From the NCBI GenBank assembly GCA_950097015.1, contig CATNEN010000001.1:15128001-15192000 (forward strand): a stretch of DNA of 64,000 nucleotides, given 5' to 3'. Both the position numbers and the translations under genes were made by a program. The notes beneath the pieces were generated by a model. It had not been told where the DNA came from and made no database searches. It was given only the letters and a program-made list of their open reading frames with translations. This stretch comes from Macrostomum hystrix. Its lineage: Eukaryota > Animalia > Platyhelminthes. Shown piece after piece: positions 3,991-63,786 of the stretch; the stretch's first letter is position 1; each line of letters begins with the position of its first letter.

Positions 3991-4592
3991 CCAATAGTTC
4001 CAATCTCCCCAACAGCATAGTTGAGCTGACCAGGAACCTCCTGAGGTTTTCAGTGCGCATAAAAGGTACTCCAGGGAGTGAGTTACCAAACTAACAGTTT
4101 GCCTACAGATAAAACAAAATTAAGGTGCCGTCAGGCAGGCTAAGGCTGGTTGCAGTAAAACAGTTAATTCTATTCTTGCTCGCTTAGATATTTGCTCGAC
4201 CATTTTCGCGACATCCTCAAAGACCGCTTGCTCGCTCACTGCGGGTAGCAAGAAATTAGACTTATTTTCGTCCCTGTCTTGTGTGTCCTTCACCTTATCT
4301 GACTAGCCGGCTTAATGGGATCATGATTTGATTACTACTCGGAGTGGATGTCGGGACCCCATCTCCTCTCGTCTCCCTCGTTGATAGCTGTTTCTACATT
4401 TTACAAACGTTTTGCCTCTCCCCCAGAGGTGACCATTATTATTTTTATTCCCCGAGGATAAAGTTGCAATTGGTTTGTTCAAAATGTGCATGTCCAAACT
4501 GCTCTACTAACTAAGTAGAAATACTAGTTTTTTACTATAAAAACTGCTAAAAATGTTTTTACAGTTTCTTTACACGATTCAGCCCAGTGAAA

Positions 4593-8246: not shown

Positions 8247-8789
8247 TGTTCTCAACAAATAACTGACCACTGCTGTACCAAGTTGCACACTGACCGATGT
8301 CCCAAAATCAGTTATCTGCCTGACCTCCGACTGCAGAAGTCACGCTATTGGCTGCCCAATCCGGTGTCATGGCCGGGACACAGGCTGAGGTTGGGGCAGG
8401 CAAAACAGCGAAAAATAATCAAGAAAAAGCAGCTATCAGTTGTAGGTCGGGCTCGAATCTAAATAGGCTGTTGCATCAGAAATTTGAGCGAGTCCCATCA
8501 GCTGCAACAGGAGAGAGCAGAGGCTGCGACCTTGCCCAGCACATATTGACTCCGAAATACCGCGAGAGTGAGAAAGACTTGAGACCGCGTGAGTCAAGGC
8601 GGCCATGGCGTGCAGACAATATCTGCCTACTGCCGTGGAGGCAGTCTGGCTCTGAATATTAATGACCTCTATGCTGTCCACGACCCTCGTCGCCTGTTTG
8701 ACCCGTCTTCGTTAAAAGCGTCCAGCCGAAGTTCGCTTTCTGCGCAGCGGTCGGTCGGGTCGGGAGCGGCTGCTATACAGTTGAGGAGA

Positions 8790-14786
<5,997 letters not shown>

Positions 14787-27093: not shown

Positions 27094-28086
27094 CTATTGC
27101 AATTTCAATAGAGAGACTGAGTGCGAGCGAGGAAAATATGTTTCATCGATGCCGAAAAAGGAAAAGCACAGGTCGTAAGCGAGCGCCACAAGACCCTGCG
27201 ACTTGTCGTACTTACCAATGTCGGCTTCGAGTTTCTCCAAGAACTCGAGAACAGACGGCGGAGCAGTCTCCGAGAGTTTTTCCGCAAACTCCTGAGCGGA
27301 CACATCGGTGAAAAGATGGACGCCGTCACGAAGGCAGGCAAGTAGTCTCTTCTTGACAATGCGAAGGAGTGGACAAAATATAGCGTTAACAGCCTTGCGG
27401 TGATGCACGATGGTCTGCAAGGCTTGATAAGTGAACGCCGCGTCGTCGTTAAGTGTCGGTTTCGGCTTCTTCTTGATCATGTACGAATACAAGTTGAGAG
27501 CCGTCTCGTGAAACGGAGCGTTGGCATCAATGACCTCAACGACCTTGGCAGGCAGACCCTGCAGCCACTCGTTAATGTCGGTGGCGGACAGCTGAATCGG
27601 CTCGCTGTTGTGCAGAAGTACCTTCTTCGGGTCGAGGCACTTACTGACCATAGCGTCGAACATGTCCTTGGCGAGAGATTTCGGATCCACGAACCCGGCC
27701 ATGTCGGGCACGTTCCTGTTGCGCTTAGCGAGCGCGATCATAGACTCACGACCAGAAAAGTTTCGATTGTGCGGCATCTGAGTAGAAAGCACAGGCCTCA
27801 TGGCCTCATACTGCGAAGCACGAGAGTTCATCTTGAGCGGATTGAAAGAGAAGTCATCCACACCGATCTCCAAGTCGGTGTTGTGGACTAACCACTCATC
27901 ATGCGCTTGGCAGGCGCGCGAACTCAATGGAAAGGCCGAGTCGACGACGTGCTGCACATAGTCGGCGCCGAGGGTCTGGTCTCCATGGACGTCGACCTTC
28001 TCGAGCTTGATAGGTTCGGCCTCGAGCGCGACCATTTGATAACCCTGAAAGGACAAAAGACCCGCGTTGGCAAGGACGGTCTCAAC
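27094..28086 (-). other. Endogenous viral element: N-terminal part of an alpha-like (Martellivirales; Virgaviridae/negevirus-like) RNA-dependent RNA polymerase
   Basis: Stop-free ORF with PVLST.MP, ES..ALAKRN.NVP, YSYMIKKKPKP.L, Y.ALQTIVHH.K.VNAIFCP, and motif A LEADIGKYDKSQ, typical of tobamo-like RdRP_2; ends before motifs B and C (no GDD). Confidence 0.88.
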
Positions 28087-29657: not shown

Positions 29658-31699
29658 CTAACTTGATGCTAACTTTCGCAGACGCCGTCCACTGCCGGGC
29701 GTCTCTCGTACATGGTCCGAATCACGACGCACGAGTCCTTTAAAAAATGTGTTAGCTAACCTCCTGGAAATGCGGCTAACCTGAGCTGGATCTGAAACAG
29801 TTACATCCATGAAAGCTTTAAAAACGTTAATAAAAGATCGGACACAATAGTTGACGCAGTGGATCTTGACAGAGGAGAAAAAAGCATAGCACAGGCTGGA
29901 GAAAACTAAAAGCCACTCTGGCGGGTGCCGGAGCTTGCCACGAGATAGCAGCGATGTAAATTCGCTACCGCCAGGAAACTCAGTTGCAAATGCTTCAAAA
30001 ACTTCTGGAAGATGCTCTTTAGCAGCAACGTAACCGGAAATATAGTACAAAGAAGCATTCTCCTCATCTGTATTGTGGCTGATCTTGTCTTGAAGCTGAT
30101 CAAACACCTCTAGATCAGAGTCCTTCATCCCATCGGAACAGCATGTCGCCGGCTCATGAGCCTCAAAGCTGTTCTGAAGCGCTCCGTACAATTTCATTCG
30201 GTGCAGCCGAGCACTGGCCATAACTTGCTCGACTGTTATGTAGTAACACCCGCCGTGGCCCTGGCGGTAGAGAGCGAACTCGGCCTCCAATCTGTCTGAT
30301 TGCAGTACACCTTAAAGACAATTTCGTGACCCATTAGATAGCCGTGACCTGCATCCCCACAATTCATTAAATTCATTCCCTAGCAACAATTATTCAAAAA
30401 CTGATTGCTGCATGTAAATAATGCAAAGAACTCACCAAGAAGAACGTAAGAAAATCGATGGTTGGTTAGAAGGTGTCTGCTGAGGCCCACCAGACCTCTT
30501 GTTGTCTGGATTAAAGCGTTGCGCGTCTCTGTGGTGAGCGACCGACCGCGTCCCGCACCTCGTCCACCCGGCATGCGCTCCACCAGTGCGGAGAAATTAA
30601 GTAAATGTGTCAAGCTGCTAGATTCTTCCGACGTAATTGGAGCCCTAAGTTTGTCATTCAAGGCAACGTGTGATTCTGGTGATTTAACATTAACTATTTT
30701 CCAAAAGGTGACCACATGGTCCACAAAGTCGGCTGAGTCATGGCGACCGTTAACACGAAGTGCGGCAACCGTCTTCTCGTTGAAGATGTCGACAACTAGT
30801 GACACCTTTTGTCGCTCCAGTGGAGACGGATTGCACGCGACAGAGTTGACTGAAGTCGGGCGAACTACTTGTCCACGGGATCGCTCCTCGATTTCAACAA
30901 TATCATTCCAGCGTGCTCGGCAAACACGTTCCTGCTTATCTGCTGATGGGTGAAAATCGATCTCCTTGTGCGCTTGAGTGAACCAATTATTTCTTATATT
31001 CTTAAACAAATGCACTGTGTCAAACAACAGAAACAATGGTTTCTCTGCGTCTGCAGGGTTTTCGGCAAGCCATGGTGTGTTTGTGTCGCAATGAAACAGT
31101 TTGAAACAGTTCTGGTTAGTGAAGTGATTATCGCAAATCAAGCTCACAACTGTACCACCACAGCCGTGGACAATTTCAATAAGTCGTACAACCTGTCTGT
31201 GTAAAAAAGCAGGCTGTAAACTATAGATTGGCACAAGTCTGGCAACAAACGCAGGTGCGCCCATAAATGGTTTTACCATAATGGCGAGAATAGTCCGAGC
31301 AAGCTTCTGTGGAACATCCTCAGCAAAGCCAACTACATGGACACCTTTGAGACGAAGTGAAGGTTGCACATACACTTCATCAAAGATGATTGAGCACAGG
31401 CACTGAGACGGTGTGTTGTGTTCGAAATTCGACTTGACAATTTGCTGACAGTCGGTGTCGGTTCCAATGCTGCCAAGTCCACCCAGATGACGTTTGAGAG
31501 TGTCTGGATGTGGTAGACAGGCGAACTCTCTCATTGCACGATAGCCAGCACGACTGGTGAAGTACATTCTGGCAGCTGTCATTATATCATTTGCAGCATA
31601 CCGTACGCCATGATGCTGAACAACACTCAGTTGCAGCTGTCGAACATGTCGAGCAGCAGCTGTGTTGCTGCTGCAGTCCACCTGCAGCTCCACCAAATG
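29658..31699 (-). mobile_element. P-element superfamily (THAP9-like) transposase; complement(join(29658..30310,30436..31699)), 5' exons unresolved
   Basis: HTH region with CLPHPDTL; catalytic IIFDEVYV, LICDN...NQ, FDTVHLFKNIRNNW; ERQKV.L...IF; spliced LG|VLQSDRLE.EF..YRQ..GG.YYI (phase-1 GT-AG intron 30311-30435). Confidence 0.85.
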
Positions 31700-33056
31700 C
31701 TGTTAGGGTGACATTTAACCCCCGGGACGCCCGACGCCCGACGTCTTCGTCAGGGGCGGCTGGGTCGGCAGCGGCGGCAGGGTCGGCAGCGGCGACAGGG
31801 TCGGCGGCGGCGGCAGGGGCAGCAGTGCGTCCTAGTGCACGCAATAACTGCTTGTGTGATCCTATTCCGTGCCGGAATAAGCAATATTGCTGTTCCGGAA
31901 AGTACTGAAGCACCTAAAGGAGAAAGGCAAGTCAAAGTTAAGGCTTTCACTTTTCAAGTCAAAGAAATCGAGGGCTTTGACTTTCGACAGCCAGAAGTCC
32001 AAGTTTAATTTTTTAAGTCTAAGAAATTTAGGGCTTTGACTTCTGATTGCCAAAAGTCCAAGTTCCACTTATTAAGTCTAAGAAATCCAGGGCTATGCTT
32101 CTAGGGCTATCCAGGGCTATACTACGCTGCGACTTTTGGAATTAAATGGAATTAAATTAAAATTCGTTTATATCCAATTTTTTAAAATAATAAAATTAAT
32201 ATTAAAATTAATAACTACAATAATAATAATAACATCAAAATGGTTGTAAAAAAAATTTACATTTCAAAGCAGATCAAATACAGACTTACAGCATCCCCTG
32301 ACGTATAGGCCATGCTTTTGCCTGATGCGCCGGCAGCTTGGGTGATTCGGAGGCACGGGCAGAGCAGCCGCACGCAGTCCTTGGCCTTGCAGGTAATGAA
32401 GCAGGCACTATTTAATGGGCACGTTTGCATGGGAGCCAATGGGCGGCCCATAATTCGATCTAGAGGCAGCGGCCCCACGCGCAATACATCCAGGATGGTT
32501 GCCATGGCGATGCTGATGCTGATGCTGCAAACAAATAGTAAAACTTAATAGAGTATCTCCAGCCTCTTGATTTTGTGTAGCTAATATTATCAATATTACT
32601 TCTGATTGCCAAAAGTTCAAGTTCCACTTTTCAAGTCTAAGAAATTACTCTCAGGTTAATGTAATCTCCTATATGGATACTATGGATATAAGAATTAGAT
32701 AACAATAAAAGACAAGAATGATTTTAAATATGATAGGGGCCTAAATGGGCCATGTTAGGAGCATAAAATCATTATACTACAATCAACCCTCTTCAAATAT
32801 ATCATTTCAATGAATCCCCCTTTGAATATTACAGCTGATGTAATAATCAGTTCCTGTTGAATACATTCAGGTCTAACAATCAATCCCCTTTTGAATAGTT
32901 GCAATTGCAATAATTTAAACCATCTACTGCACACCATTCAAAAGATGATAATTTCTGCAAACAAATAGTAAAACTAAAAGGAGTTATCACCAGCCTCTTG
33001 ATTTTGTGTAGCATTTCATGCATAGCTAATATTATCAATTGCTTTTAATTGCTTTT

Positions 33057-44894: not shown

Positions 44895-47800
44895 TTGACT
44901 TACTTGACTTAGCGGCAGGGGGCCTCCATGACGGACGCAGCGAGGAGGCGGCTGGTGCCGCCCATATCGCTAACCCCTGGCAGCCAGACGGCCTCCATCG
45001 AGGCGGTGCCGCTCAGGGTGGTCCGTCGGTCGGTTCCGCCGCGCGATCTTCCTCGCCATAGGCTGGGAAGAAATCAGCTCGGCCGGTATCCCGGAGGAAG
45101 TGGGCGAGCTGTGGGATGTTCTCGGGCGAGCAGGCTTCGGCAAGAGTCGGTGCCGGCCCGAGATGCTTTAGCCTAGCCCGGGTGAAGGCCGGGCAGTGGC
45201 AGATGAAATGTTCGGCGTTTTCACGTCCGGAGCAGCAGAAGGGACACGTTTCCTCAGGCACGTGGCCTTGGAGGTAGCGGTGTCTGGTGAAGCAGCCATG
45301 TCCCGAAAGGGCCATGGTGACTGCTCTCAGGTCTCTGCGGTTTAGCCTGAGTAAGGCCTTACGCAGGTTACTTGAGGGGGTTGGCACCGCAGCCCTGGAC
45401 TGGCGACAGTTCAGGGTGCTGGACCACCTCCTCCGATGCTGGGTCTCCATCCAGCGGTTGATGCTGGAGTTGACAACAGAGGCGGGGATCGGGGATTCCG
45501 GGCCCGGGCCCATCAGGGAGCTGGCTGCTCCAGCCTTTGCAAGCTGGTCCGCCATCTCATTCCCTGTGAACCCGGCATGCCCAGGGATCCACATCAGCTC
45601 CACCTTATTAGACTGCGCCAACCCGTTTAACTGGGTGTTGCAGTCCAAGGTGGTTCTGGAGCGAGAGGTGCAGCGGCTGAGGGCCTTGAGGGCTGCTTGA
45701 CTGTCGGAGTGAAAAAAGATCCTCCGACCAGCCAGCCGCCTCTGGCGCAGCTCAGCCGCACAGAAGCTGATGGCGAGCACTTCGTTTTGGAAAACGCTAG
45801 AGCTCTTGCCACAGTATTGGGAGTGGGTCCAGAGGACCTCACCACCCGAGGCGACGCACACTCCGAATCCCGATTTACCGTTCATCAGAGAGCCGTCAGT
45901 GTAACAGTGGACTGCCGGGTCATCCCAGCAGTCCTTTACCTCATTACGAGGGGAGATGCTGACTTTGTACCTGTGGCTCCGGAGTAAAGTGGCCGGGGCC
46001 CCGTCCGAAAGGATGGTGAGCCCTCCGCACTCGCCCAGAGTTTTCAGGCAGAGGTCAGAGTGAGGCAGAAGGGAGCGCTTCGAGAAGGCTCGCGAATTCT
46101 GGAAGTAGACACCCGCATCAAGAAGACGTCGGGTGGACTTTGCTGCTTCCCCCTTGACGAAAATGTCAATGGGTGTAGCGTTGAGGAAAGCATTCATGCC
46201 TTCGAAGGGAGTGGAGGGTGGGGCGCCCAGCGTCATACGACAGGCTCTGCCCTGCACCCTATAAAGCGCCTCCAGGTTTTTCTGGATGCCCATGGCGCTG
46301 GCCCAGATGAGGCCAGCGTAAGCGACGGACGGTCTAATGATCGCCGTGTAAATCCACCAAAGGTTCTTGGGGGTTAGCCCCCAGGTGACTTGCGCCAGTA
46401 TGGCCAGGGCCCTCTGGCCTTTGTGGTGATGTGTGGGGTCCAGTTAAGCCTATGGTCTAGCACGAGACCAAGGCACCGGACCTGCTTTTCCATTGCAATA
46501 TTCTTGCCATAGAGAGTCAGAGGCTTAATGGTCCAGAGCAGTTTGCTGGTAAACATAACCGCGACGGTCTTGGACTCAGAGAGTCGGAGCCCGCATTGGT
46601 CCGCCCAGCGCACCGCCCTGTTGATAAAGCCCTGAATGAGGTCCCTGGTGGTTTCCGCCGAGGGGCCCGCGCAGATGGCGGTCACATCGTCGGCATATCC
46701 CACCTTCAGGACTGGGTCTGGACGAGTGCTTTTCAGCAGCTCATCCATGACGAGATTCCACAGCAGTGGGGTGAGGACGCCGCCTTGGGGCCCTCCTTTT
46801 AGGACAGGTGCCGAGAGCACCATGCCTTCGAGGTGGGCCACCACGTGGCGATTCCGGATCATGTACATGACCCAGCGAACGAGGTGGGGGTGAGTGGCCC
46901 TGGAAACTAGGGCCTTCTCAAAGGCTTCGAAAACAACGTTATCGAAGGCCCCCTCAATATCAAGGAAGACAGCCAGGGCAAAACCGCTGCCCAGTACTGC
47001 CTTCTCTAGAGTCTCCACGATGCAGTGGAGGGCGCTCTCCGTGGACCGGCCCGCCCGAAAGGCGTGCTGGTTTGGCGAGAGCGGGGCCCGCCCTAGCTCT
47101 ACAGTAAGAAGGCGCCAGAGCACCAGTCTTTCCATGAGCTTGAGGCAGGTGGAAGTCAAACTTATCGGGCGATAAGACTTGACCGAGCGATAGTCGCCTT
47201 TGGCGGGCTTCGGGATGAAGACGACCCGGGCTTCGTGCCACAGCGCTGGTACGTAGCCCAGCACGATGCAGGCCCGTAGAAGTCTGCAGAGGAGATGGAG
47301 GAAGCGGCCATTTTTGACCGCTTCATGCAAAAAGGCCGGATAAATACCATCTGGCCCAGGTGCTTTGAAAGGGTTTAATGACTTTGCCGCGCGAACGATG
47401 CGGTCATTCGGGACGAGTGACTGAGCCAGGCCCTGACCTCCACGTGAGTGGTCGTCTGGGCCAAAGTGCGCCGGTACACTCGGGAAGAAATGCCCTAGCA
47501 TAAGCTCGAGCGTTTCCTCCGGGCGCTCCGTGATCGAGCCGTCTGGCTTTTTGATCGATGAGAGCTTGGAGAAGCGGTCGTTGGTGAGCGCCTTTACCAC
47601 GCGGGCCGTGGGCCGCGAGCCCTCCAGCCCTTCGCAGTATTGTCGCCATTTGTCCGCTTTTGCCCTTCTGACCCGGCCCTTAAACTCATGGATGGCGCGA
47701 GTATAGGCCTCTTTGTCATCAGGGTCGTGCGAGGTTTTCAGCTTCCTCTGGAGAGCCTTAGCTCGGCGTCTCAGGACTCCGAGCTCGGGGTTCCACCAGG

Positions 47801-48825
47801 GGGCCGATTTTTTGCCTTTGTAGGCTTTGAGCGGGCAAGCCATTTCGTAGGCCTCTGTGATGGCGCCGCCCAGCAGGGCAGCCACTCCATCTAGGTCCTG
47901 CGTGGTTGCCATGGCCATGGAGGGGTCGGAATCCCGAAGGCCCTCATGCAGCTTTTGGCTGAACGCGGGCCAGTCGGTGTTTCTGACATTACGCCTCCAA
48001 ATAGGCTTTTGCTTCTTATCGGGGGTACCGATGTTGAAGCGAATGAAACGATGGTCCGAGAGCGAGCTTTCGGTCTCCCATACCTCCCACCCCAGCACCC
48101 TTGGGAGGATGCCGGGTGAGGCCAGGGTGACGTCAAGCACCTCAGCCCACCGCCCATTGTCGAAAGTGGGCGTGTTGCCCACATTACAGAAGTTAAGAGG
48201 CGTGCCGCTGACGAAGGCCAGGAGCTCTTCGCCGCGGTCATTGATTTTTTAGCTACCCCAGTGGGTGTGATGCGAGTTTGCATCTCTCGCGAGGAGCAGC
48301 TCGAAGTTTCGTGCCCTGGCGAAATCACAGAGGGCGACGAGGGTATCGCTGACCACGGGGGCGTCGCCTGCCAGGTAGGCGGATGCCACGAGGGTCAACT
48401 TGTTAGGCACAATGTGTGCAGATTGGATGACGCAGATGTCCCCGTTAGAGAGATCGGGTCTCATCCACGCATTTAAGGCTTTTGCGGCATAGATCAGTGA
48501 TCTAGGGCGGACAGAGTCTGCCATGCAGAAGCAGTCATAGCCAGCAGGAATGTTGCTTGGCTTGTTCTTTGATAACCAGGGCTCCTGCACAAGTACAAGG
48601 CCCGGCATCATGCGCTCTGTCGTGCGCATCAGATTTACTGATGCTGCCACGCAGTGCTGGGTGTTAACTTGCAGACATGATATTCCGGGGATCATCATGC
48701 AGGCAGAGGTCTACTTGGAGGGGGACTCAGCCAGAAGGCGGTCCTCCTCCTCCAGGTCGATGTCGGTAGGCATGGGCTCCTCCGTGCCCAGGCCCCGAGC
48801 CAGAGGCGGGAACTCGACGGGGTCA
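44895..48825 (-). mobile_element. 5'-truncated LINE (I group, Loa/R1-like): end of ORF1 plus ORF2 (APE-RT-RNase H-CCHC) with two frameshifts
   Basis: APE LQVNTQH, VQEPW, DANSHH..WGS, SDHRFI; RT KAPGPDGI, YRPISL, FLDIEGAFD, PQGGVLTP, YADD; RNase H YTDGS, SDSQAAL, WIPGH.G..GNE.AD; CPFC...E..EHF.C.C; 12-bp TSD CGCGAATGGATC at 44883-44894 and 48826-48837; short TAAGTCAA(G) 3' tail. Confidence 0.93.
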
Positions 48826-51800: not shown

Positions 51801-52795
51801 CACTTTTATTTGTTAAGTTCTGCTGCTAGTTTCTTTGTATTTCTTGCTTAACAGTGTACTAAGCTCTGCAACTTTTTATGAAGCAACACAGTCACTAATT
51901 TCATTTGGTCTTTAGACCTAGCCTCCTATGCCTAGCCTACTTCCAGAGTCAGAAAGGTGGCTCTGTGTGCCAGAAAGAAATTATAAACAATGTAATATGT
52001 GACATGCACCACCAATATAAGTAACTTTACCATTGAGTCAAGTAGGCTTTGGTAAATAGTTAATAGGGCAAGATCTCAAAAAACCAATGCATACTCTTTG
52101 CACAAAGGCTTCTTTCCAGTGGACCTTGAACTTGAGATCAGTATATATATTAATCAATCACTTAAGAGGGTATTAAACTGAGATTAGTGGCAATCCATTA
52201 GAGGATTAGAGAAGTCCATGCTGGTATCAGTATCAGACAGGCTGATCATCTAGGCAGAACAACTGCAGCTGGACACTGCAGTGTGTCTGGCAGAATAGCT
52301 GTAGCTGGACACTGCAGCATGTCAGTCTGGCCCTGGCAAAGCTGAGCAAACTACCACCCCGAGTGCTGCCAATCTTTGTCACATTCCATGGAGTCCATGG
52401 GTGGCAGAAAGTGTTAATTTGTGAGAGTGAGAAAAAGGGATTTGTGTGCAAGTTTTTAAGTAAATGTTCAATCCTTTATATTCAAGCAAGTGTATAGAAA
52501 TGATGCCCAAGTGCAGGTCTGCAATCTCCACAGACTGTAGTTACATGACCACGATACTTGTGGGAATATATGTGGAATATAAGTGCTATGATTTCATTGT
52601 AGAATATATAAAACTTTATAGTATTAAATAGAAAACAGTTGTCTGTCTACAATATTAAATACTGTGGAGCAATTCTTATAAATTACTTTCTCATTTCCAG
52701 ACAATGTATCGCGGCATCGAACTGAAGCGTGTTGTCAAAGCTTCACTGCAAACTGGCTGTCGTGGGCGACCCAGAAAGATTAAGACAATCATTAG

Positions 52796-55465
52796 CGGCC
52801 GAAATCGAGGCTCAACATCTCGGCACCCTGTTCTCCTAACTATAAATCACTCCCAACAACCAGCGAAATCCCGCCCAGACAGGTAACGATCAACCAACAT
52901 AGACGATCATATCGTCCAGCAATCTTGGTCCTTGTATTGTGCCTATTGGCTACATTGCTGCCCGTTGCTATGTCAACCCCAACTGTGGCACCACCAAATC
53001 AAGAGGACAAACATGTACATCCATTGTATGTCGACACGCCAATGCTGTGTCCATCTAATATTCCGCCTAAAATCTTCACCATACCACAAGAAATCGAGTG
53101 CGAGAAGTTTCAACAACCTAGGCGACAAGTCACACCTATCCGCTTGGAACTCTACAGCACCAATCTTGATACGGCTTCTATATTGATTACGGCATGCCTC
53201 CGTGAGAAATTATCATTCTCTTGTACTAAATCATCCATAGTACGACGATGGAACGATGCCACTATCAAGATTACCCCTCAACCAGTCAGTCAACAAGACT
53301 GCCAAAGGTGGTCAGAAGGCAAGGTTTCACCTGAGGGTGTTCTGAAACTAAAAACGTCTCCAACCCAGACTCTTCGTCGTTACCAATCGGACATTAGCGA
53401 CGCCATGACGACTGAATGCCTCGCAAATCGTCCCTTCGAAACGACAATAACTACAATAATACAGAACATCCCGGCATACGCTCAACCTCATGGTTTGATG
53501 GAGTCTTTATCATTTCCGGTCAAACACTGCAATTACACTACACATACTTGCATACTGGAGACTACTTTTGACCAAATGATTCGATTCAATTTGCCTCTTT
53601 CTATCTTGGCTGCTCCTTGGAAAGACCTCGAACAAAATGCCTTGTTAACGTTAACTACCTCTGGCAATCGTCAACTTCGACTCATTTGGACGATGCCAGA
53701 ACTCTCAGATTGTCGTCTTAAAGCCTTCCGTGTGATGTCCGGACACCTAAGTTCTGGATTTTTTCTCAATGATGACCAGACACTTGGACTTACCTTCGTA
53801 CCATCACCTAAAACGCACCTGTTAACATGCTCAGGATTGCGGAAGACTCTATACCTATCTACCCAAGGAATCTATGTCGCTGTTCTCGACAACCAAGAGA
53901 ACAACTTCACTACCATTCTGCGTTCACAGATTACGAACGCTCCAGTGCTTACTCCGGCAAACCAGCCGACAGCCAGCGACATAGATACCGCCTCAATAAA
54001 ATTAAGACTCAGGCGCTCATCCGCCTTGACACTTCCAACTCCACCGACTCGATCTCCGAATCCAAATAAACAAATACTGGTGACAACGGAGTCCCTGCAG
54101 TCAACTACTCCTTTTGCCGGTACCGAAAGATCTGATCCTACAACTATGATAATACCAAATTCGCTACCGACGACACATTACGACACAGGAAGCTCCGTCG
54201 CATCCGACCCACCTAAAGTTACGAACAGTCCACTTAAGGACATACCGAACTCCACATCTTCGATGAGTCCGCAAACGGTGACAACTGAACAACTGACAAG
54301 TCAACGGATGTCTACCACCACAGTGGCACCGACACATTTGGTGGTGACAAGCACGTCCGACACATCTACACCACCAGCAGAGGTTGTTCCAAGAACTACA
54401 GGCCAAAGGACAGGTGAACCTGTCGGCCCGTATCATACACCGTTCCACGAACCTTCTGAATCACTACCTGACCTACCTAACCTAAGAAGGTTAAAACGTC
54501 AGACGAAAGTAGCTCAGACAACCAACACCACCGATACAGTTAAAACTTCTCAATCACTTGTTTCTGCAGAATTGCTATCGGCACAATTACAAGGCGTCAC
54601 AACAAAATTACATCACGATATTCAAGAGACTCACAACCAGTTGATGAACACGCAATGCAAGATGTACACTCTAAACTTAAAGTACAATCGACAGCTGTAT
54701 TATACAAATCCTACACTTGCCGCACGAATATTACTACAAACTCCATTCGTGCATGCACGTTCCATTGCGGGATACATCTTTGTATATCAGTGTCAACCAT
54801 TGCATAACTTTCGATTTGTACAACCGTACTATTCAACTGGAATGTGTTTTACTCGCCCACCAGTCTCTTTTACCGTTCAAAACCAAACTGCACTCGGTTT
54901 CCTCGATACGACAACTCGCATCGTATCCACTGCGAAACCTATGTTGATACCATGTCCATCAGTGTATCACTACTACCTCCCAAAACAGTCGATGCTCTTC
55001 AGAACGAACCTCAACTTCACCACGTTTACGCCGACTAGTTCTGATTTCACGACAGATGAAACGTACAAACTGGTGGACCTCCAGTCTTCCATTATACAGA
55101 GCATCTTCACCCCACTGGGAGACATTAACTACACGTCACTACGAAGTGCAATCACTATAACCGACCTAATGACACAATTCATACATACACGTGATTTCTT
55201 AGTCACCGTGTTTAAACTTAACAATACTGGCCAATTCAAACTCGGTTTTGATCCTATCAGTGGCCTCGACACACACTCAGCGCTTATGAATCTGTGGTCC
55301 AATTCCCTATTCAGCTGGGAACGCCTTAAGGCGAACCACCAGGAGAAATTTATATTCAGCGCTGCAGTCATTGTCTATGTTGCACTAATCATTTTTCTTT
55401 GCAACATTGGAGCCTCTGTGTCGCCTCCACGCTCCATTTTGGTAGCACACACCGTGTCGCCTTGA
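52796..55465 (+). CDS. env: Envelope glycoprotein, class III / herpesvirus gB-like (frame open from 52796; no ATG before the signal sequence)
   Basis: Hydrophobic signal (ILVLVLCLLATLLPVAMS); Cys-rich ectodomain; RLRR and RLKR furin-type sites; gB-like blocks SAQLQ...L...I......C, NPTLAARILL....ARSIAGYI.V.QCQP, CFTRPPVSF, GFLD...RIV, IPC; N-glycosylation sequons; C-terminal TM FIFSAAVIVYVALIIFL. Confidence 0.8.
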   Translation, partial: RPKSRLNISAPCSPNYKSLPTTSEIPPRQVTINQHRRSYRPAILVLVLCLLATLLPVAMSTPTVAPPNQEDKHVHPLYVDTPMLCPSNIPPKIFTIPQEIECEKFQQPRRQVTPIRLELYSTNLDTASILITACLREKLSFSCTKSSIVRRWNDATIKITPQPVSQQDCQRWSEGKVSPEGVLKLKTSPTQTLRRYQSDISDAMTTECLANRPFETTITTIIQNIPAYAQPHGLMESLSFPVKHCNYTTHTCILETTFDQMIRFNLPLSILAAPWKDLEQNALLTLTTSGNRQLRLIWTMPELSDCRLKAFRVMSGHLSSGFFLNDDQTLGLTFVPSPKTHLLTCSGLRKTLYLSTQGIYVAVLDNQENNFTTILRSQITNAPVLTPANQPTASDIDTASIKLRLRRSSALTLPTPPTRSPNPNKQILVTTESLQSTTPFAGTERSDPTTMIIPNSLPTTHYDTGSSVASDPPKVTNSPLKDIPNSTSSMSPQTVTTEQLTSQRMSTTTVAPTHLVVTSTSDTSTPPAEVVPRTTGQRTGEPVGPYHTPFHEPSESLPDLPNLRRLKRQTKVAQTTNTTDTVKTSQSLVSAELLSAQLQGVTTKLHHDIQETHNQLMNTQCKMYTLNLKYNRQLYYTNPTLAARILLQTPFVHARSIAGYIFVYQCQPLHNFRFVQPYYSTGMCFTRPPVSFTVQNQTALGFLDTTTRIVSTAKPMLIPCPSVYHYYLPKQSMLFRTNLNFTTFTPTSSDFTTDETYKLVDLQSSIIQSIFTPLGDINYTSLRSAITITDLMTQFIHTRDFLVTVFKLNNTGQFKLGFDPISGLDTHSALMNLWSNSLFSWERLKANHQEKFIFSAAVIVYVALIIFLCNIGASVSPPRSILVAHTVSP

Positions 55466-58400
55466 TACGTCGCCTACCTAGTGAAAACGTTGAATCAACA
55501 CCAGCGACAAATCGCAGGAGGACAACGTCGTTCACGTTACCTCGACCGCTCACCCCAACGGCGCCTCCTGTGGAGCTCCAAATGGAAGCGTTAATTCCAC
55601 CACAAGGAAAACGACCAAAGCCACCACCACCAGCTATTCCACAGTGGCCAGCTTCCTACGCTTGCGTCGTCAAACATGTTACCACGGCAACAATGATCCA
55701 ACTGTGGTGCCGAGGTACACAACAAACCCGATATAGATGCACAGCACTTATCGACAGTGGTGCGTCAATCTCTTGCATCTCCTCTGCATTCGCTAAACGA
55801 CTTGGTACCCCGTTGCAGAACACCAATTTGAACGCAGTTTGTGCAGGTGGCCAACAGCTCTCCCTCAACCACAAAACTACTTTTCAAATGGAAATAGGAG
55901 ATAAGGTGCACTCCATAACTGCCTTCGTGCTGGATTCCCCATCATCGGATTATGACCTCCTTCTAGGAGTAGAAACATTCAAGACACTCGGAATCCCACT
56001 ACAATTTGACTATGCTAAGGCAATTGCCACACTTGGCAATGAAGAAATCGCCATGGTCAACGCACTCGCGCCTCAAAATGAGACATCAGCAATGTTAATG
56101 GAGAAGACAACGATTCCTCCGCAATCTGCCAGACGAACAACGTTGATGTTATCAACACACCACACACCTGGTCATCCTGTCTTCTTTGTGCCAAAGGACC
56201 ACACTATACAGAAACACCGATTGATTATTTCATCGAGCTTACTCACCATTAATACAGACGGCAACACAATTATGGTTGAGATTTCTAATCCGTCCTTATC
56301 ACCGGTCACACTACATCCACACCAAGTTGTCGGTAATCTCGCTGATATGCGAGACTATACTATTGTCGATACGGCTGCGACACTCAACCGCCTTGCCGTT
56401 TCGCCGACAACAGAGTGCACAAGAACACTAATTACATCTCAACTTCAAGAAGCCAATGCCCATCTCACACCGGATGAACAAGCTCTGCTCATCCCACTCT
56501 TGATCAAATATCGAGATGTCCTAGCTCTACTACCGACTGATATGGGCTGCACTACTCAATACACTGCCAACATCAGTGTACAACCACACAGCGAACCCGT
56601 CACAGCTCGTCCTTACCCAATCGCACATGGGCTTCAGGAACGATTCGATCAATTGATCGAGAACTTTGTCCAAAAAGGCATTATTAGCCCTAGCGAATCT
56701 GAATATTCCAGCCCTTGTCTGTTGGTAGAAAAGAAAACTCTGGACGACCACGGACGACGACAGCTACGTCTTGTAACTGACTATCGAAAATTGAATAAGA
56801 TCATCAATGCTCCTAGTATCCGTCCGCCGCGAATTCCTGACCTGCTCCACCGCCTGAAAAGCGCAAAACTCTTTTCTCTTTGCGATTTGGCGGATGCCTT
56901 TTATCAAGTCAGGATTGACCCGGAAAGTACAAAATATACCGCATTCATAGCACCAAATGGCCTTCTTTGGGAATTCAACAGACTACCACAAGGCCTCAAG
57001 TCCAGTCCTGGCTTTATGTGCCGACTAGTGGCTCTACTTACCGCCGAATCCGCCAACCAAATCGCCTATTTGGACGACGTACTTTTAATTTCTCAAAACT
57101 TTCAAGAAATGCTGGTCGAATTGAAGCACTTCTTCCAAAAACTACGTCACCATGGTCTTCGAATTTCACTCAAGAAGTGCATCTTCGCCAAAAAGGAAGT
57201 TCAATACCTAGGATTCGTAGTCTCGGAACATGGGATCAAACCAACACCAAGTTTGATTAAGAAGATTAAGACGTTCCCTACACCGACGTCTGTCAAACAA
57301 CTACAATCCTTCCTTGGTCTGGCTAATTTCTATCGCACACATATCCAAGGATATTCACAGATAATCCAACCTTTGTTGGTCGTGCTCAAATCATCGAGCA
57401 AGCCAAAGAAGTTTACATGGACCGACAGTGCTCAATCAGCTTTTGACGAACTTAAATCACTGTTAACCTCCGACATAGTACTAACGCATCCGGATCCGAA
57501 GAAGCCTTACTTTCTACACACGGACGCATCAGATACAGCTATTGGTGCCGTATTATCCCAATTAGACAGCAGAGGACATCAGAAACCTGTGGCATACATT
57601 TCAAAAACGCTCACGAGTACAGAACAACGCTATCCACCAATTGAACGTGAAGCGTATGCCATCTATTGGGCCATTAAGAAACTACACGTTTTTCTTTATG
57701 CCTCATACCTTCCGTTCCATGTCTTCACCGACCACCAGCCACTCAAGAGCATTTTTTCGGACAAACATCCTATTTCTCGCCGATTACAGAAATGGATATT
57801 ACACCTCCAAGATTATAACTACACATTGGAGTATGTCAAGGGAAAATCTAATGTCGTCGCAGATTGTTTATCACGAATTCCAAAAATATGTGGCCTCCAT
57901 TCGGTCACACAATTTGATAAACTACAAACTGCCATCGACGATGACCCTATCTTCAAGATCATCAAAGCGGCACTACTCGGTAAACCAATACAGCAAAAGA
58001 TACCGAGGACAACGCAACGATTTCTTAGACGACAGTTAAAATACTTTTCTGTACAAAACAACACGCTCTATTACGATGATGACAATGGAAACATGCGACT
58101 CGTTATACCACACTGTTATCGAGATGCCTTGTTATCCTCGTGTCAGACTCTGCAGAGACTGACACGCTTCTACTACTGGCCCACTCTCTACAAAGACGTA
58201 CAAACTTTCGTTAATGGGTGTACAATATGTCACCGCGCCAAATCTGGCCCACGACTGCACCCAGAAAGAAAAGCCGTCAAGTTCAATGAAGTCTTCTCAC
58301 ACCTGGCTATCGACATAGTTGGACCTGTACCTCCTGCAAACCGTGATAGAGACATTTTCAAGTACATCCTGACCGCTCAGTGTGGCGTCAGCAAGTTTCT

Positions 58401-59352
58401 CTTCACGATCCCACTATGCGATACTACGACAGCTACAATCTGCTCCAATCTGTTTCGATATGTGTTTTCTGTTGCCGGACTACCAGCCCATATCATCTCA
58501 GACAATGGTCCGCAGTTCATATCACAAGATTATCGCGACTTCATGAACACGCTAGGCATACAACTCATCTACACCTCATACTATCAGCCATCTAGCAACT
58601 TTGTTGAAAGAGCACACAAAACGCTCAAACAAACACTGACAGCATTTGTGCACGACAAACCCGAACTCTGGCTTGAATACCTTCCATCAGTTACGTTGGC
58701 AATAAATACAGCCGTACATGCTCATATGGGTGAATCTCCCTTCTATCTATTCTATGCTCGCGATTTCCTGCCACCTAATGCTAGAATCATAGAGCATCAA
58801 ACTACGGCCTACATGGATGTGATCAAGCCCGTCAACATTACGAGTTCTGCCATTTTACTCGCACGTGATATCGCCATTCAACATCTACACTCAGCAGTTG
58901 ATGCTCGTACTACACGACATAATGAGCAAATGTCTCAATCCACTCCGTTAAAAGTCGGCGCTCGCTGCTATCTAGATGTTTCCGCCACTAAGGCAACTAA
59001 ATTCTCTAATCCCTACCGTGGTCCTATGAGAATACTCAAATGGCTATCACCGCAGAATGTGCTCATCAATGATGTGAACAAGCCTCATGAACAACCTATC
59101 GTGGTACATGCTTCAAAACTCAAACCTTGGCCGAACGATACGCCTCCTGAAGCCATGATACCTGAGTTCACACATTCAACGGCTCAAACACACACTAATC
59201 ATCGAGCGAATCTTACTCGCTCAATTGCGTTGCAAACATCTCAGACGGACATCAAGCAGTATGAGACGGGTGCAGACCGTAATGCAACACCTACAAACAA
59301 CTTGAAAGAAGAGCCTAGATACCAACTACGCTCAAGAGCCGTACCACGATGA
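55399..59352 (+). CDS. pol: Gypsy Pol polyprotein: aspartic protease, RT, RNase H, integrase with GPY/F
   Basis: ALIDSGAS; RLVTDYRKLN, DLADAFYQ, YTAF, RLPQGL, YLDD; HTDASDTAIGAVL, TDHQPL, NVVADCLSR; IDIVGP, ISDNGPQF, VERAHKTLK; YRGP. The HH half of the integrase HHCC finger appears deleted. Confidence 0.95.
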   Translation: MQHWSLCVASTLHFGSTHRVALIRRLPSENVESTPATNRRRTTSFTLPRPLTPTAPPVELQMEALIPPQGKRPKPPPPAIPQWPASYACVVKHVTTATMIQLWCRGTQQTRYRCTALIDSGASISCISSAFAKRLGTPLQNTNLNAVCAGGQQLSLNHKTTFQMEIGDKVHSITAFVLDSPSSDYDLLLGVETFKTLGIPLQFDYAKAIATLGNEEIAMVNALAPQNETSAMLMEKTTIPPQSARRTTLMLSTHHTPGHPVFFVPKDHTIQKHRLIISSSLLTINTDGNTIMVEISNPSLSPVTLHPHQVVGNLADMRDYTIVDTAATLNRLAVSPTTECTRTLITSQLQEANAHLTPDEQALLIPLLIKYRDVLALLPTDMGCTTQYTANISVQPHSEPVTARPYPIAHGLQERFDQLIENFVQKGIISPSESEYSSPCLLVEKKTLDDHGRRQLRLVTDYRKLNKIINAPSIRPPRIPDLLHRLKSAKLFSLCDLADAFYQVRIDPESTKYTAFIAPNGLLWEFNRLPQGLKSSPGFMCRLVALLTAESANQIAYLDDVLLISQNFQEMLVELKHFFQKLRHHGLRISLKKCIFAKKEVQYLGFVVSEHGIKPTPSLIKKIKTFPTPTSVKQLQSFLGLANFYRTHIQGYSQIIQPLLVVLKSSSKPKKFTWTDSAQSAFDELKSLLTSDIVLTHPDPKKPYFLHTDASDTAIGAVLSQLDSRGHQKPVAYISKTLTSTEQRYPPIEREAYAIYWAIKKLHVFLYASYLPFHVFTDHQPLKSIFSDKHPISRRLQKWILHLQDYNYTLEYVKGKSNVVADCLSRIPKICGLHSVTQFDKLQTAIDDDPIFKIIKAALLGKPIQQKIPRTTQRFLRRQLKYFSVQNNTLYYDDDNGNMRLVIPHCYRDALLSSCQTLQRLTRFYYWPTLYKDVQTFVNGCTICHRAKSGPRLHPERKAVKFNEVFSHLAIDIVGPVPPANRDRDIFKYILTAQCGVSKFLFTIPLCDTTTATICSNLFRYVFSVAGLPAHIISDNGPQFISQDYRDFMNTLGIQLIYTSYYQPSSNFVERAHKTLKQTLTAFVHDKPELWLEYLPSVTLAINTAVHAHMGESPFYLFYARDFLPPNARIIEHQTTAYMDVIKPVNITSSAILLARDIAIQHLHSAVDARTTRHNEQMSQSTPLKVGARCYLDVSATKATKFSNPYRGPMRILKWLSPQNVLINDVNKPHEQPIVVHASKLKPWPNDTPPEAMIPEFTHSTAQTHTNHRANLTRSIALQTSQTDIKQYETGADRNATPTNNLKEEPRYQLRSRAVPR

Positions 59353-59853
59353 GCAATTATTCGCGCTATGAACTCGATACGATCGACATTCTTTAAATTC
59401 GTACATGTTACCTTCTACGTTACCCATATTTTTATTTTTTGTTATAATTTCTTTCCCTTCTTCACCCTTGATGTTTGATATAGAATACCATCATTCCTCC
59501 ACACATCTAATATCTATCTTCTATAGTGCACATTATATGCCTTGATATCACTTTTGTCAATCCAAAACACAAAAAACTACAAAAAATACCACTTTTCAAT
59601 ACACATTATTTAGTTTCTCGCTTATCCTATTTCTTTTCATAATTATAGATAATTTTATATATTACCTAAACTCGACATGCGGCTTCACCTATATTTATTC
59701 GCTACCTTTATTACCTCCTCATACATATATTACTCAGCTACGACTATTTCGAAGACAGACCTCTTCTCCTTTACACTTGTTCTAAACATTTTTTCCAATA
59801 TCTTTTCTTTCTGTCCTTTATTCCACATTCGCCTCATTGAGGCTCGACCGTGT

Positions 59854-59941
59854 GACTAATCTGATGACCTGGCGATTGACTAACCTGATGACCTGGCGAT
59901 TGGCTAACCCGATGACCTGGCGATTGGCTAACCTGATGACC
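59854..59941. repeat. 24-bp tandem repeat (G(A/G)CTAACCTGATGACCTGGCGATT), ~3.7 copies, in the element's 3' region
   Basis: Directly visible. Confidence 0.85.
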
Positions 59942-60213
59942 CGAAGTCTCACCGAATACCGCTGAAGTCGACACCGTGGCCTACACTGACACGCTGTCAT
60001 TCATCCAGCTATCGACTTCATCCCATACCGTCTTAGCGTTTACACCGACAGCGGCACAAGCGTCTCTCCCATCAATCAAGTCTCTCTGCCCGACTCCTGC
60101 AATTGCGATCTCTCGTGTCCGACACGAAGTAGAACCAGAAGCCTCATTTCAACGTGGTGGCCCTGAGAAGGGCCGTTTTAACGTTCACAATGGGCTAACA
60201 TCATACTGTGCAG

Positions 60214-60492
60214 TCAACAAAGCGACCCCGCAGCGAAATCGGCACCGTCTAGAGCAACTGCCGGACTAGCCGACCGCTGCTCTGGATGATGGGTATTCCG
60301 CCGTGGATATCGACATCTGCAGCCACAGCAGATGCACACCCACACGACCAGACTGACTAAGATGAAGGCGCCTAACAGCGCCCACAGGCTAATCAGCTGC
60401 CACTCGACGATCTGCAGTCGCTTGTCGAGACGCTCGACCTGAACACCGAGATCTGTTAAAAGCCAGCGCAGATTTGAAATTTGGTCTTGCAT
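60214..60492 (-). CDS. Putative small antisense transmembrane protein (92 aa) of the Gypsy element
   Basis: ATG start; heptad-like N-terminus; ~22-aa TM (LISLWALLGAFILVSLVVWVCI); CCGCRCR Cys cluster plus basic residues; TATAAA on the minus strand ~85 nt upstream. Confidence 0.55.
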   Translation of the reverse strand: MQDQISNLRWLLTDLGVQVERLDKRLQIVEWQLISLWALLGAFILVSLVVWVCICCGCRCRYPRRNTHHPEQRSASPAVALDGADFAAGSLC

Positions 60493-61053
60493 TGCAAGTT
60501 GAGAAACAGTTTAACTTTTAGAAACTCGCTAGAAGTCAAATGTTGCACGCATAGAGCCCCACGTTTTTCTGTCCCTTTATATCACTTTTCGTCGCTTTAA
60601 TCCAAACCTCTCCTTTCCTTTACTTTCTAACTCAATAAACTTAACTGGACATGTACATTACTCGCGCACATAGTCTATGGCACTTCTCTGCGCTTCGCTT
60701 TATCTCTACCCCACTCCCTTTGTGCACCCTCCTTGACCCTGTCTAAGGTCTTGTATATGCCACTTGTTTTGACACTCCTAATCGATCGTGTTTTTCTATC
60801 ATATTCTTATACCAACTATGCATATAATCTTTTGATGTCACCTTACATTTAATGCTCCTTACAAATACTGCAATGCTATGCTACGTTTTAAATTTTTACG
60901 GAATGACCTTTATCTTTAGGCGTTTTGTCATTTTCCTATCTTTTGAAACCTGTTTCGAATGCATGCTATATCATTTTTTCTCCTACCCTACACTATTTTA
61001 CCTAATAATTATCAACATTTTGTTTCTTGAGCTCGGAGGACCTTCGCTTCTGT

Positions 61054-61071
61054 AAAAAAGGGCTAATGAAG
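61054..61071 (+). other. Polypurine tract
   Basis: AAAAAAGGGCTAATGAAG immediately 5' of the LTR's TG. Confidence 0.65.
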
Positions 61072-61467
61072 TGTTACAATTTAAACTATGCGATTTTTAC
61101 ATCTACGTGCGATTAGAATATGCAGCTCTCCTGCGCGAGGATGCATTTGCAGGAGCTCTAGGATTAGCCTAGAGACTCCTGCCCTATGGCAGCCTTTGAC
61201 CGGATGAGTATAAAAGTTCTTGCACTGAGAGAAAGTAGCCCGACCGCCCCGCTCGCCCGTTCCTTCTTCGCTTGCTATTCAATCTCCTAGCTAGATCCGA
61301 TATCTATTAGTCGCTAGCCTTTGCTATCCCTGGCTAGCCCCTGCAAGATCCAGATAATTAAGAATACCTTATTGAAATTGGAATTGTGACTCCTGGAAAC
61401 TTCACCCAGATCTTATCTTGAACCCTTTTCCATATCTTGGTTACTGACTCAGGATCCGTGAGTAACA
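61072..61467 (+). repeat. 3' LTR (396 bp)
   Basis: Terminal inverted TGTTAC...GTAACA; internal TATAAAA at ~61209; preceded by a PPT and not followed by a PBS; no second copy seen in the window, so the boundaries are inferred. Confidence 0.7.
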
Positions 61468-61766
61468 ATCAAATACTTGTGCTTGGGAATTACCTTCTCT
61501 CAGTGATTGTAATAATTGTAATAATTTATAGTGAGTTGTCATCTTTTAATTGTTTGCCGTAAGACCAACAAAATATAATCCGATTGAGAGTATAAGACCG
61601 AAAGTGAGTGCAACATCAGGAAAAGATAGTCGATTTTCCACGCCTCCTCATTACTTAGAAATAGCCGTGAACGATTGGCTCTCGTCAAAGACAACTAGTA
61701 AAGATAATAAGAATACTCATTAAGCTAGACATTGATAGACCAGAGACGAATCTAAAATATTTCACT

Positions 61767-63786
61767 GTGTCCGAAACTACTCCTGTTCCAGTGGAAGCTA
61801 GCACTGAGAACGATGTCGGTATGCCTGAGTCTTTTGCTCCTCCAGTAGAAGATGTTGAATGGGTAGATTTTGACAGCTTTGCTGAGAAATACAGAGGCAG
61901 TTACGAGAAGCATTTTCTCTTAAATCTGTGTTCCTCTTGCTATGAGCACGAAGGTGTATATCGATGTGTTACTTGTCGACTTAGCTTATGTGCCAGCTGT
62001 AAGAATGAGACGCATAAAAAGTTTTCAGCCCACAAGTTTCTCATGGAATAAGGAGAGTCTAATGTTTCGGGAACTGGATGCTACTCACGATGCTTTTGAA
62101 ATGTTTTGCTGCGCTTCTAGTAAATTGAATCTAAATGTCTGTGCGGCTACAAAAGTTGACCTTATAGATCTGGCTGGAAGCGTAAAGGTCGTTTTTATTA
62201 CCTGCGACTCCTGTGATCTTATTGGTGCACTCCTTTCCCAGGGGTTCTTCCCTTGTTGCGAAGGGTCAAAGCCTGATTCAGATGGGTATGCATTCTTTTC
62301 TTTTACCTTTTTGTCCCTGCTAGACAGTTTGTGTATGACTAGGCAGTTGCCTGTTCACAGAGCGGTTAGTACACTGCTCATTGGGCCAACTCTGGGACAA
62401 GGTACATATAATTTGGCTCTTGTAAAAAGCACTTATCAACGCATTCAACGACATGATGTTTTGCTGCGGTTTCGCCACCTGCAAATGGCCTCAGCAAAAT
62501 GGCCAAATAATTGTCTTCTCTGTCCAGATAATCACGCTGTGCGCAAAACTGTTGTCTGTGCAGATGCTCTATTTGGTTGGCAGCGCTTTAAAGCCAGGGG
62601 GCGTACACAACTGGAAATACCATCGCCTTTTGTGTGGCTCAAATATCACAACTGGTGGAGAAAAGTTTTGCTACCTGGAACAGTGCCTTGAACACTTTCT
62701 GCGAAACGTCAAAGTGTCTAAGGAATTACTTGTCGTATATGACGTGGGTAAGTTTATTATTATTTTATAAAATGCATACAATCTATGAAATACTGTTGCT
62801 TGTGTACAGTTATATGACAACATGACTTACTCTTTATCCCAATTCACAGGCTGTCGCGTATCCAGCCGGGTTACGTCCGCTGTGCAATAAACGCTTTTTA
62901 TGCTCTTGGTCACCTGCCCAGTCGTCAAAAAAAGTTTTCTGTTCGCGTTACTCCAGGCGCAGGTCTCTGCGATGAAGAGAATACTGAGCGAGCCTGGTCT
63001 CAACTCAGGCCGTTCGGTAAGTTTTTAAAGTACATGCGAAAAGACCGACGAGCGCAATACATGGCGCATATTCTATACTTTTTTAATGCACAACAGCTTC
63101 TTAGCGCTTCTGGGTGGTTTACACAACGTATTAAGCTTATGGTAGGTGCGGGAAAAAGCATTCTAAGTGAGCTAAAAGAGCTACAAAGCCAGTCTGCGAT
63201 TTTGCAGCACTCGGGGGTCCTAAATGACAGTCTGGTCATCTCTGAGGATGAAATTTTGGATTTAGGCTCCCAATGGTATGAAGATTCCCTCCGAGTAGCT
63301 GTACACAACTCGGAAGATGATATCCTATGTGAGCTACGCGCTTTTGCAGTGCACAGAGATCATTGGAGTAAACAGGTTGGTAAGTCGGTTGGCCAAAGTC
63401 AAACCAGAATGTGCTTGCGAAAGGTTAAAAGTTATGCATCCGACATGAAGAAACTCTACGCTCGTCTTCCAATTGAAGACAGAGCTTCTTTCGATGAATA
63501 TAAAAAGCCGCGTAGTGCGAAATATGAACATTTGTCTGGAACCGATCTTTCCATCCGATTTCGTCAGCGGGCTATCGACGTCAGTAACAAGTATAAACGC
63601 CTAAAAGAAGAAGCGCATATTATTTCAGATGAGTGGGTTGACCTTCAGGTTAATTTGCAGAGCCTCTGTGATGACTTAGCGAATCAGCCGGGCTTAGCCG
63701 CTCAATTTCGGGATTTGTTTAGAAGACTGCTTGAAGTTTCAAGTAAAAGCGTGACTGATGCTGTAAAATATGTTCTTTGCGAATAA
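61767..63786 (+). pseudogene. Decayed KDZ (Kyakuja-Dileera-Zisupton) transposase with B-box and CxC Cys clusters
   Basis: B-box C..C......RC.TC...LC..C....H.....H; CxC-like IDL.G......TC..C....LLSQGFFP; CLLCP...ADALFG..R.K; YDVG; FYALGH....Q..FS.R..PGAGL.D.E..ER.WS.L...G..LKYM; frameshifts and an apparent internal deletion. Confidence 0.78.

Follow-up and report, generated by a model that had tools for sequence, protein, structure and literature searches.

What is a small open reading frame (ORF) doing on the minus strand of a flatworm retrotransposon, antisense to env and pol? We analyzed a 64,000-nucleotide stretch of the Macrostomum hystrix assembly GCA_950097015.1 (contig CATNEN010000001.1, positions 15,128,001 to 15,192,000, forward strand; hereafter, the window), in which a first-pass annotation had proposed that an accessory gene for a membrane protein, driven by a promoter of its own, lies between pol and the polypurine tract. 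Our results support that proposal and make it much stronger, because the unit is closed on the same strand by a histone-type 3′ stem-loop, a feature absent from the first-pass annotation. Overall, the cassette is built like a replication-dependent histone gene and, judging from its sequence, codes for a membrane protein that is not a histone. It is probably a gene that the element uses, with a working histone-type end. Coordinates are collected in Table 1.

Table 1 Features of the element and of its antisense cassette, in window coordinates
Feature	Position	Strand	Basis
LTR element	~52700 to beyond 61072	+	
gB-like env frame, 889 stop-free codons	52796..55465	+	Pfam, hydropathy
pro-pol ORF, 1256 aa (protease, RT, RNase H, integrase), Ty3/gypsy order	55582..59352	+	
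24-bp tandem repeat, four copies, left of cassette	59829..59941		
Stretch missing in variant form (codons 8–92 and stem-loop lost)	59960..60470		joint in two of four runs
Purine-rich stretch GAAATGAGG, 9 nt past stem, candidate histone downstream element	60142..60150	-	
Histone-type 3′ stem-loop GGCCCT-TCTC-AGGGCC, flanks AAAAC / ACCAC	60159..60174	-	Rfam RF00032
Intronless ORF, 92 aa, ATG start, predicted N-out single-pass membrane protein	60214..60492	-	
Juxtamembrane Cys/basic cluster, residues 53–65 (five Cys, four Arg)	60298..60336	-	
Predicted transmembrane (TM) helix, ~residues 33–54	60331..60396	-	hydropathy; AlphaFold2
Heptad repeat I5-L8-L12-L15-V19-L22-L26-V29-L33-L36-L40, running into TM	60373..60480	-	
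TATA box, 89 nt 5′ of ORF ATG	60576..60581	-	
Polypurine tract	61054..61071	+	sequence
3′ LTR, start TGTTACA, TATAAA at 61209, right end provisional	61072..61666	+	

The element that carries the cassette combines a Ty3/gypsy pol with a gB-like env lying directly 5′ of it, and thus outside the 1.7-kb gap between the pol stop (59352) and the purine tract (61054), whose reported extent we confirmed. The env frame matched the Pfam families Glycoprotein_B (E = 3e-5) and Monjiviricetes_fusion (E = 1.3e-4), both under the cut-off, and gave no match in a PDB sequence search; a signal-like hydrophobic stretch precedes its first ATG (52970), and a TM segment lies at its C-terminus. In the region searched, the closest named relatives of pol were Macrostomum lignano proteins (73–75% identity), followed by three metagenome proteins (54–56%), two of them env–pol fusions. 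In related elements from metagenome or MAG records (P0002, P0003 and P0054), a single frame spans env and pol; one of these records is filed as bacterial, probably through contamination by animal DNA.

A Ty3/gypsy pol directly 3′ of a gB-type env is the arrangement of GAG-ENV-POL gB-type errantiviruses, here with env matches below cut-off. The gag gene upstream of env and the two LTRs that also define that group were not found in this copy: gag and a 5′ LTR are absent from the window, and blastn within the 64 kb recovered no second LTR copy. The copy therefore looks 5′-truncated. According to the accessible part of a survey by Chary and Hayashi (PMC13524379), GAG-ENV-POL order with a gB-type env is known from Platyhelminthes, Nematoda and Bryozoa. 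The available supplement lists one M. lignano family with 16 copies and holds no env sequence that could be matched to the present element; in the main text, the terms ‘accessory’, ‘small ORF’, ‘antisense’, ‘histone’ and ‘stem-loop’ do not occur (PMC13524379).

At its left edge (52690–52890, plus strand), AT-rich DNA gives way abruptly to the element at a stretch resembling a splice acceptor; next comes a 60-aa basic ORF that overlaps the env frame, and no ATG precedes the signal-like stretch of env. At the right edge (61247–61700, plus strand), contig depth climbs near 61250, ~38 nt past the LTR TATA. The LTR is probably longer than the TGTTAC/GTAACA pair (61072/61467) suggests, because related contigs align to ~61666. 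An adapter-like loose end before 61247, together with A-runs, hints that some runs are cDNA; we place no weight on it.

Elsewhere in the window, inspection by eye picked out host genes for a COQ5-like methyltransferase and an intron-poor ionotropic glutamate receptor (4551–5770 and 8583–14786, plus strand), P-element/THAP9-like transposase frames (29658–31702, minus strand) and fragmented non-LTR retrotransposon frames with endonuclease, RT and RNase H (45013–48710, minus strand). A minus-strand frame at 27094–28086, which by eye looks like part of an RNA polymerase of the alphavirus supergroup (virga/nege-like), we take to be a probable endogenous RNA-virus piece. Directly after the LTR (61821–63786, plus strand), B-box zinc-finger and CxC1-like pieces probably belong to a broken KDZ-type DNA transposon.

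The 92-aa ORF was found where it had been called, in the GC-richer island described for it (53–56% GC over 59900–60500, versus 31–38% in the AT-rich parts of the gap). Its length alone is unremarkable, as minus-strand ATG ORFs of at least 92 aa appeared in 4–17% of dinucleotide shuffles of the gap. A TM score of at least 2.5 combined with a net basic charge of at least 3 and at least two Cys, criteria chosen after the ORF had been seen, occurred in 0 of 9,000 such shuffles and in 2 of the 94 ATG ORFs of 60–200 aa in the window, the second being a simple-repeat ORF. The ORF is more than chance. A single TM segment followed by CICCGCRCRYPRR, as had been noticed, is indeed encoded: the best 19-residue Kyte–Doolittle mean is 2.78 (residues 38–56), with CC at residues 55–56 and four Arg within residues 59–65. 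An N-out topology is predicted because the net charge is 0 before the TM segment and +4 after it, and the Cys/basic cluster would presumably be palmitoylated. AlphaFold2 returned a single helix over residues 2–61 (pLDDT 95 over 31–50) and a disordered tail (coil, pLDDT ~50; hydrophobic moment 0.14–0.29 over residues 64–92).

The N-terminal part, which the first-pass annotation had called coiled-coil-like, makes a stronger case than was claimed. All eight a/d positions are I, L or V, a result seen in 13 of 20,000 ectodomain shuffles and in 2 of the 346 stop-free six-frame segments of the window, the other being a tandem repeat. An origin of the heptad as a 21-nt tandem repeat of the DNA was rejected (lag-21 identity 0.41, mixed codons). 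Residues 25–30 (RLQIVE) match R-h-x-x-h-E, named as a trimerization motif in the available part of PMC6173795. Modeled in three copies, residues 1–66 formed a parallel, in-register bundle packed on the a/d residues, including an R25–E30 contact (score 0.70, against 0.01 for the best of three controls; at least 92% of contacts agreeing between runs; pLDDT at least 78). In calibration, 21 of 30 proteins solved as pairs attained the mark, as against 0 of 23 single chains, figures that are only roughly valid for three copies; the copy number was our choice, and resemblance to solved coiled coils may be enough for the model to pass. On this modeling, the protein is predicted to self-associate as a coiled coil.

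Beginning 39 nt past the stop, on the ORF strand, the hairpin aligned to the full length of RF00032 (model positions 1–46 at 60179..60135, minus strand) with 28.8 bits, below the gathering cut-off of 34, and E values of 1.9e-6 to 4e-4 by search size (1.5e-5 in 2.4 kb; 4e-4 in 64 kb). It was the sole Rfam match in 64 kb at E up to 1. Its structure is that of the family, with six standard pairs, a pyrimidine-rich 4-nt loop, an A-rich 5′ flank and an ACC 3′ flank; the loop reads UCUC, versus UUUa in the model consensus. So is its position soon after the stop of an intronless same-strand ORF, where an 80-nt target amounts to 0.0006 of both strands. A consensus pattern for the histone stem-loop had a single match in the window and none in 100 shuffles. 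Beyond the stem-loop, AATAAA signals lie at 59817, 59707 and 59694.

Upstream of the ORF, the TATAAA reported on the same strand is present, one base from its earlier placement, and the sole other ATG between it and the ORF ATG lies at +29, at about the expected start site. TATA box, first ATG, stop, stem-loop and purine-rich stretch are thus ordered and spaced on one strand as a unit of ~400 nt. The accessible parts of earlier work describe the histone stem-loop and the purine-rich downstream element as conserved cis elements (PMC5416884), name histone mRNAs as the only known target of SLBP (a review, PMC9709290) and report that planarians possess stem-loop histone mRNAs and that loss of SLBP removes their stem cells (PMC10954484, PMC4603911).

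It is very improbable that the ORF arose by chance in a GC-rich island beside a plus-strand GNRA packaging-type signal. The plus-strand loop does read GAGA, the ORF region folds at z −2.5 and many windows were scanned at the first stage, but the asymmetric flanks fit the histone model on the minus strand only, and the shuffle results for the TM/Cys/basic combination, the heptad and the stem-loop pattern all argue against it. The plus-strand GNRA signal had been a candidate of our own, dropped once Rfam gave the minus-strand match.

Near the left end of the window (939–963, plus strand) lies a degenerate histone-type hairpin with one broken pair, whose 5′ flank, GTTAAAAC, is common to the cassette hairpin and which shares 23 of 27 letters with it (Rfam 13.1 bits, E = 1.4). 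Ending ~10 nt before it is a short frame, hydrophobic at first and then basic. The motif (945–963) therefore occurs elsewhere in the genome without a clear gene; a crude search of the window found no histone motif.

Of the candidates retrieved for the ORF protein, three were of similar length and 169 were longer; none scored, and there were 0 matches in 1.84 billion representatives and none in 90% clusters. The best PDB match had E = 0.23, Pfam matches were all under cut-off with none to a histone, and ESM Atlas leads all fell below the 0.9 lead level. The Atlas recognition value of 2550 was exceeded by 91 of 100 known-family proteins and by 9 of 100 shuffled ones. We also inspected 89 distant integrase-related loci (7 on genome contigs, 2 on viral contigs and the best 80 of 523 from metagenomes) and found the stem-loop pattern in none of them, nor in the viral contigs searched; these loci have no bearing on cassette conservation because they are too distant. 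A literature search that took in few subscription papers found nothing on the present ORF and no histone stem-loop in an LTR element.

Weak, non-significant likenesses to the small regulatory TM proteins TMIE, phospholemman and SMIM22 did appear. Coupled with a promoter of its own and the S-phase expression predicted from it, which would not depend on the LTR, they would suit a protein that acts on the host cell, for example by clustering receptors to favor the division or survival of carrier stem cells. Such likenesses are at chance level for a TM segment plus Cys/Arg and no partner was identified, and we regard this explanation as rather improbable.

Ten sequencing runs contain part of the stretch, four of which we compared as contigs. 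Close contigs in all four cover all or part of the ORF, with 0.4–2.6% differences and no gap letters over the covered part; among the differences listed (40 of 310, alongside 12 of 35 indels and 29 of 158 pieces), one falls inside the ORF in close contigs, and it is silent. Types ~15% diverged likewise cover the ORF region, where divergence (14–16%) is no lower than in a non-coding stretch (15%). In run X2, three contigs (0.4%, 13.8% and 15.8% from the window) all start at 60158, one base outside the stem. Judged by these contig ends, the pattern fits an unchanged 30-nt word shared over the hairpin; such a word would be shared at a fixed place with a chance of ~6e-5, and the contig starts were noticed before the Rfam match was known. 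One close-type contig terminates near 60188.

Two diverged types carry gaps. One has seven gap letters (net −7) in 60158–60476, at places not among the indels listed; because that span is 82% ORF, its frame may be broken. In this X2 contig, 60477–60612 (first codons, leader and TATA) did not align at 80%. Another carries four gap letters (net +2), and ORF makes up 53% of the span concerned. The joint of the variant that lacks most of the cassette has ends that are not splice sites on either strand, and its contig depth is ~50, versus 29 and 7 for close ORF-bearing contigs, depth not being copy number. At this joint, 23 inserted letters copy both flanks, as polymerase-theta-type repair might leave them. 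Contig ends at 60543 were rejected as a transcription start site, since a 30-letter overlap with the deletion form in the assembly accounts for them. The stop of a close ORF contig at the stem (60159) in run X1 was set aside as an RNA end, as contigs from X3 and X9 run through; close cover is missing left of 60159 in X1, a hole that proves nothing.

The deletion form in two of the four runs and the unplaced gaps in a diverged type would be expected of a passenger, either a captured host gene for a small membrane protein or histone-gene ends around one, unneeded by the element and being lost. The GC3 of the ORF (0.59), intermediate between env/pol of the element (0.43) and host receptor exons (0.72–0.74), and the degenerate hairpin with the same 5′ flank point the same way. 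Against this, the region is kept in types ~15% apart with an apparently unchanged hairpin, and the 1.84 billion representatives held no host homologue. We judge a passenger unlikely, if worth keeping in view.

The greater contig depth of the deletion form in two runs would also fit a cassette whose main product is RNA, with antisense stem-loop RNA feeding piRNAs against the element and deletion freeing a copy. Planarian stem-loop histone mRNAs give rise to SMEDWI-1 piRNAs of their own orientation, according to the available text of PMC10954484; own-orientation piRNAs here would be antisense to the genomic RNA, and local folding on the minus strand reaches z −3.1. As this would leave the heptad, TM and Cys/basic design unexplained, we assign it a low probability.

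Our preferred reading is instead that the cassette makes a protein through the histone pathway. Antisense transcription from the cassette TATA would start at ~60550, independently of the LTR, and SLBP/U7 cleavage at ~60155 would yield a non-polyadenylated RNA of ~400 nt. Translation would occur mainly in S phase, which in flatworms means neoblasts and the germ line. It would yield an N-out membrane protein, palmitoylated and self-associating, that is predicted to be trimeric and would be present mainly on dividing cells. Most speculatively, its three-fold stalk would meet three-fold gB at the surface of the target cell and gate entry, either as a re-entry block or as the trigger that herpes gB receives from other glycoproteins.

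An env-partner role is favored because a trimeric fusogen would be well matched by a stalk with the predicted three-fold symmetry and because FAST fusion motifs are absent. It is favored also because gB-only errantiviruses lack the herpesvirus helper glycoproteins; their entry is called unknown in the accessible part of PMC13524379, since herpes gB needs gD and gH/gL. Counting against the preferred reading are the sub-cut-off score and deviant loop of the hairpin, the deletion form, the gapped diverged type, the undiminished divergence over the ORF region, the lack of homologues in the databases searched and the occurrence of the degenerate hairpin away from any clear gene. Given a working gene, the prospects that its product acts on env seem to us evenly balanced. 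The whole chain, from an antisense histone-pathway cassette through an S-phase protein to a partner of the gB envelope, is a tentative proposal that we think somewhat likelier to fail at one of its links than to hold throughout. That the cassette aims particles at dividing cells, through a trimeric receptor or trigger on stem and germ cells only, we think unlikely.

If correct, no earlier case would be on record of an LTR element with a gene for a non-histone protein controlled by SLBP/U7, a route taken to be exclusive to histone mRNAs. A mobile element would thereby gain a ready-made S-phase switch, S phase being a mark of the flatworm stem cells from which the germ line is founded. As for the partner that gB-only envelopes are missing, and so for how gB-only errantiviruses enter cells, the 92-aa protein would offer a concrete candidate, with particles made elsewhere aimed at the cells that transmit insertions. 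Similar genes may be widely missed, because such RNA escapes poly(A) sequencing and such ORFs fall under 100-codon cut-offs; a search with RF00032 inside LTR elements would find them.

Comparison with known systems places the cassette among several families. GAG-ENV-POL errantiviruses with an HSV/gB-type env have the same env-before-pol order, gB-like env and Ty3/gypsy pol, as far as the accessible text describes them (PMC13524379), whereas the present copy is without gag and a 5′ LTR. Metazoan replication-dependent histone genes are likewise intronless, with a TATA box, short leader, 6-bp stem, 4-nt loop and ACC flank; the cassette differs from them in encoding no histone, in lying antisense in an LTR retrotransposon and in its sub-cut-off score. 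Plant antisense ORFs and the retroviral HBZ and ASP are placed and oriented likewise; Grande gene23 is transcribed from an internal antisense promoter of its own and ASP is a Cys-bearing membrane protein, in the available parts of PMC7264820 and PMC10186651. In those parts, Grande GENE23 and HBZ are nuclear, unlike the predicted membrane protein of the cassette, and a histone-type end is reported for none of these genes; no sequence likeness to them was found.

Rhabdovirus Class IA viroporin-like proteins and influenza M2 are also small, with a central TM segment and a basic C-terminal side, in genomes with a class III fusogen (PMC4334499, accessible part). This likeness, together with an Atlas score of 0.82 for M2, short of the 0.9 level for leads, would suit a viroporin or budding factor such as M2 or the rhabdovirus alpha1 proteins, whose genes follow those of class III fusogens. 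The cassette protein differs in its long heptad ectodomain, its apolar TM core (L, L, L, F, S, V, I; few polar residues line it) and its N-terminus, which is not aromatic-rich. Its three-helix bundle, the only state modeled, appears to have no pore, and a viroporin or budding role is correspondingly doubtful.

Also alike in overall build are sORF2 of the MDG1 group and the reovirus FAST proteins, of 60–110 aa with one TM segment, a ~30-residue ectodomain, a basic patch and, in p10, a dicysteine (PMC11952523, PMC12945298, available parts). The first-pass annotation had drawn the FAST analogy, and its general layout stands: the protein is small and predicted to pass the membrane once, with an N-terminal ectodomain of ~32 residues and, after the TM segment, a dicysteine and basic patch as in p10 FAST (PMC12945298, available part). 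The analogy fails in the N-myristoyl motif (no MGxxxS/T), the cystine loop (no Cys in residues 1–33) and sense orientation, and the ectodomain is predicted to self-associate. A cell–cell fusogen of this type in dividing cells, letting capsids pass between cells without env, would gain from the fact that the sORF2 survey left out palmitoylated forms by design. It would lose from a hydrophobic ectodomain face that is buried in the self-association model, a tail predicted to be disordered and an element that already has an env. In the accessible part of that survey, sORF2 itself gave no cell fusion in expression assays, and all 105 insect sORF2 candidates lie in the gag-pol sense orientation (PMC11952523). 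We hold such a fusogen to be improbable. What sets the cassette apart from sORF2 and FAST is its predicted coiled-coil ectodomain, its antisense orientation, a promoter and 3′ end of its own and its place inside an env-bearing element.
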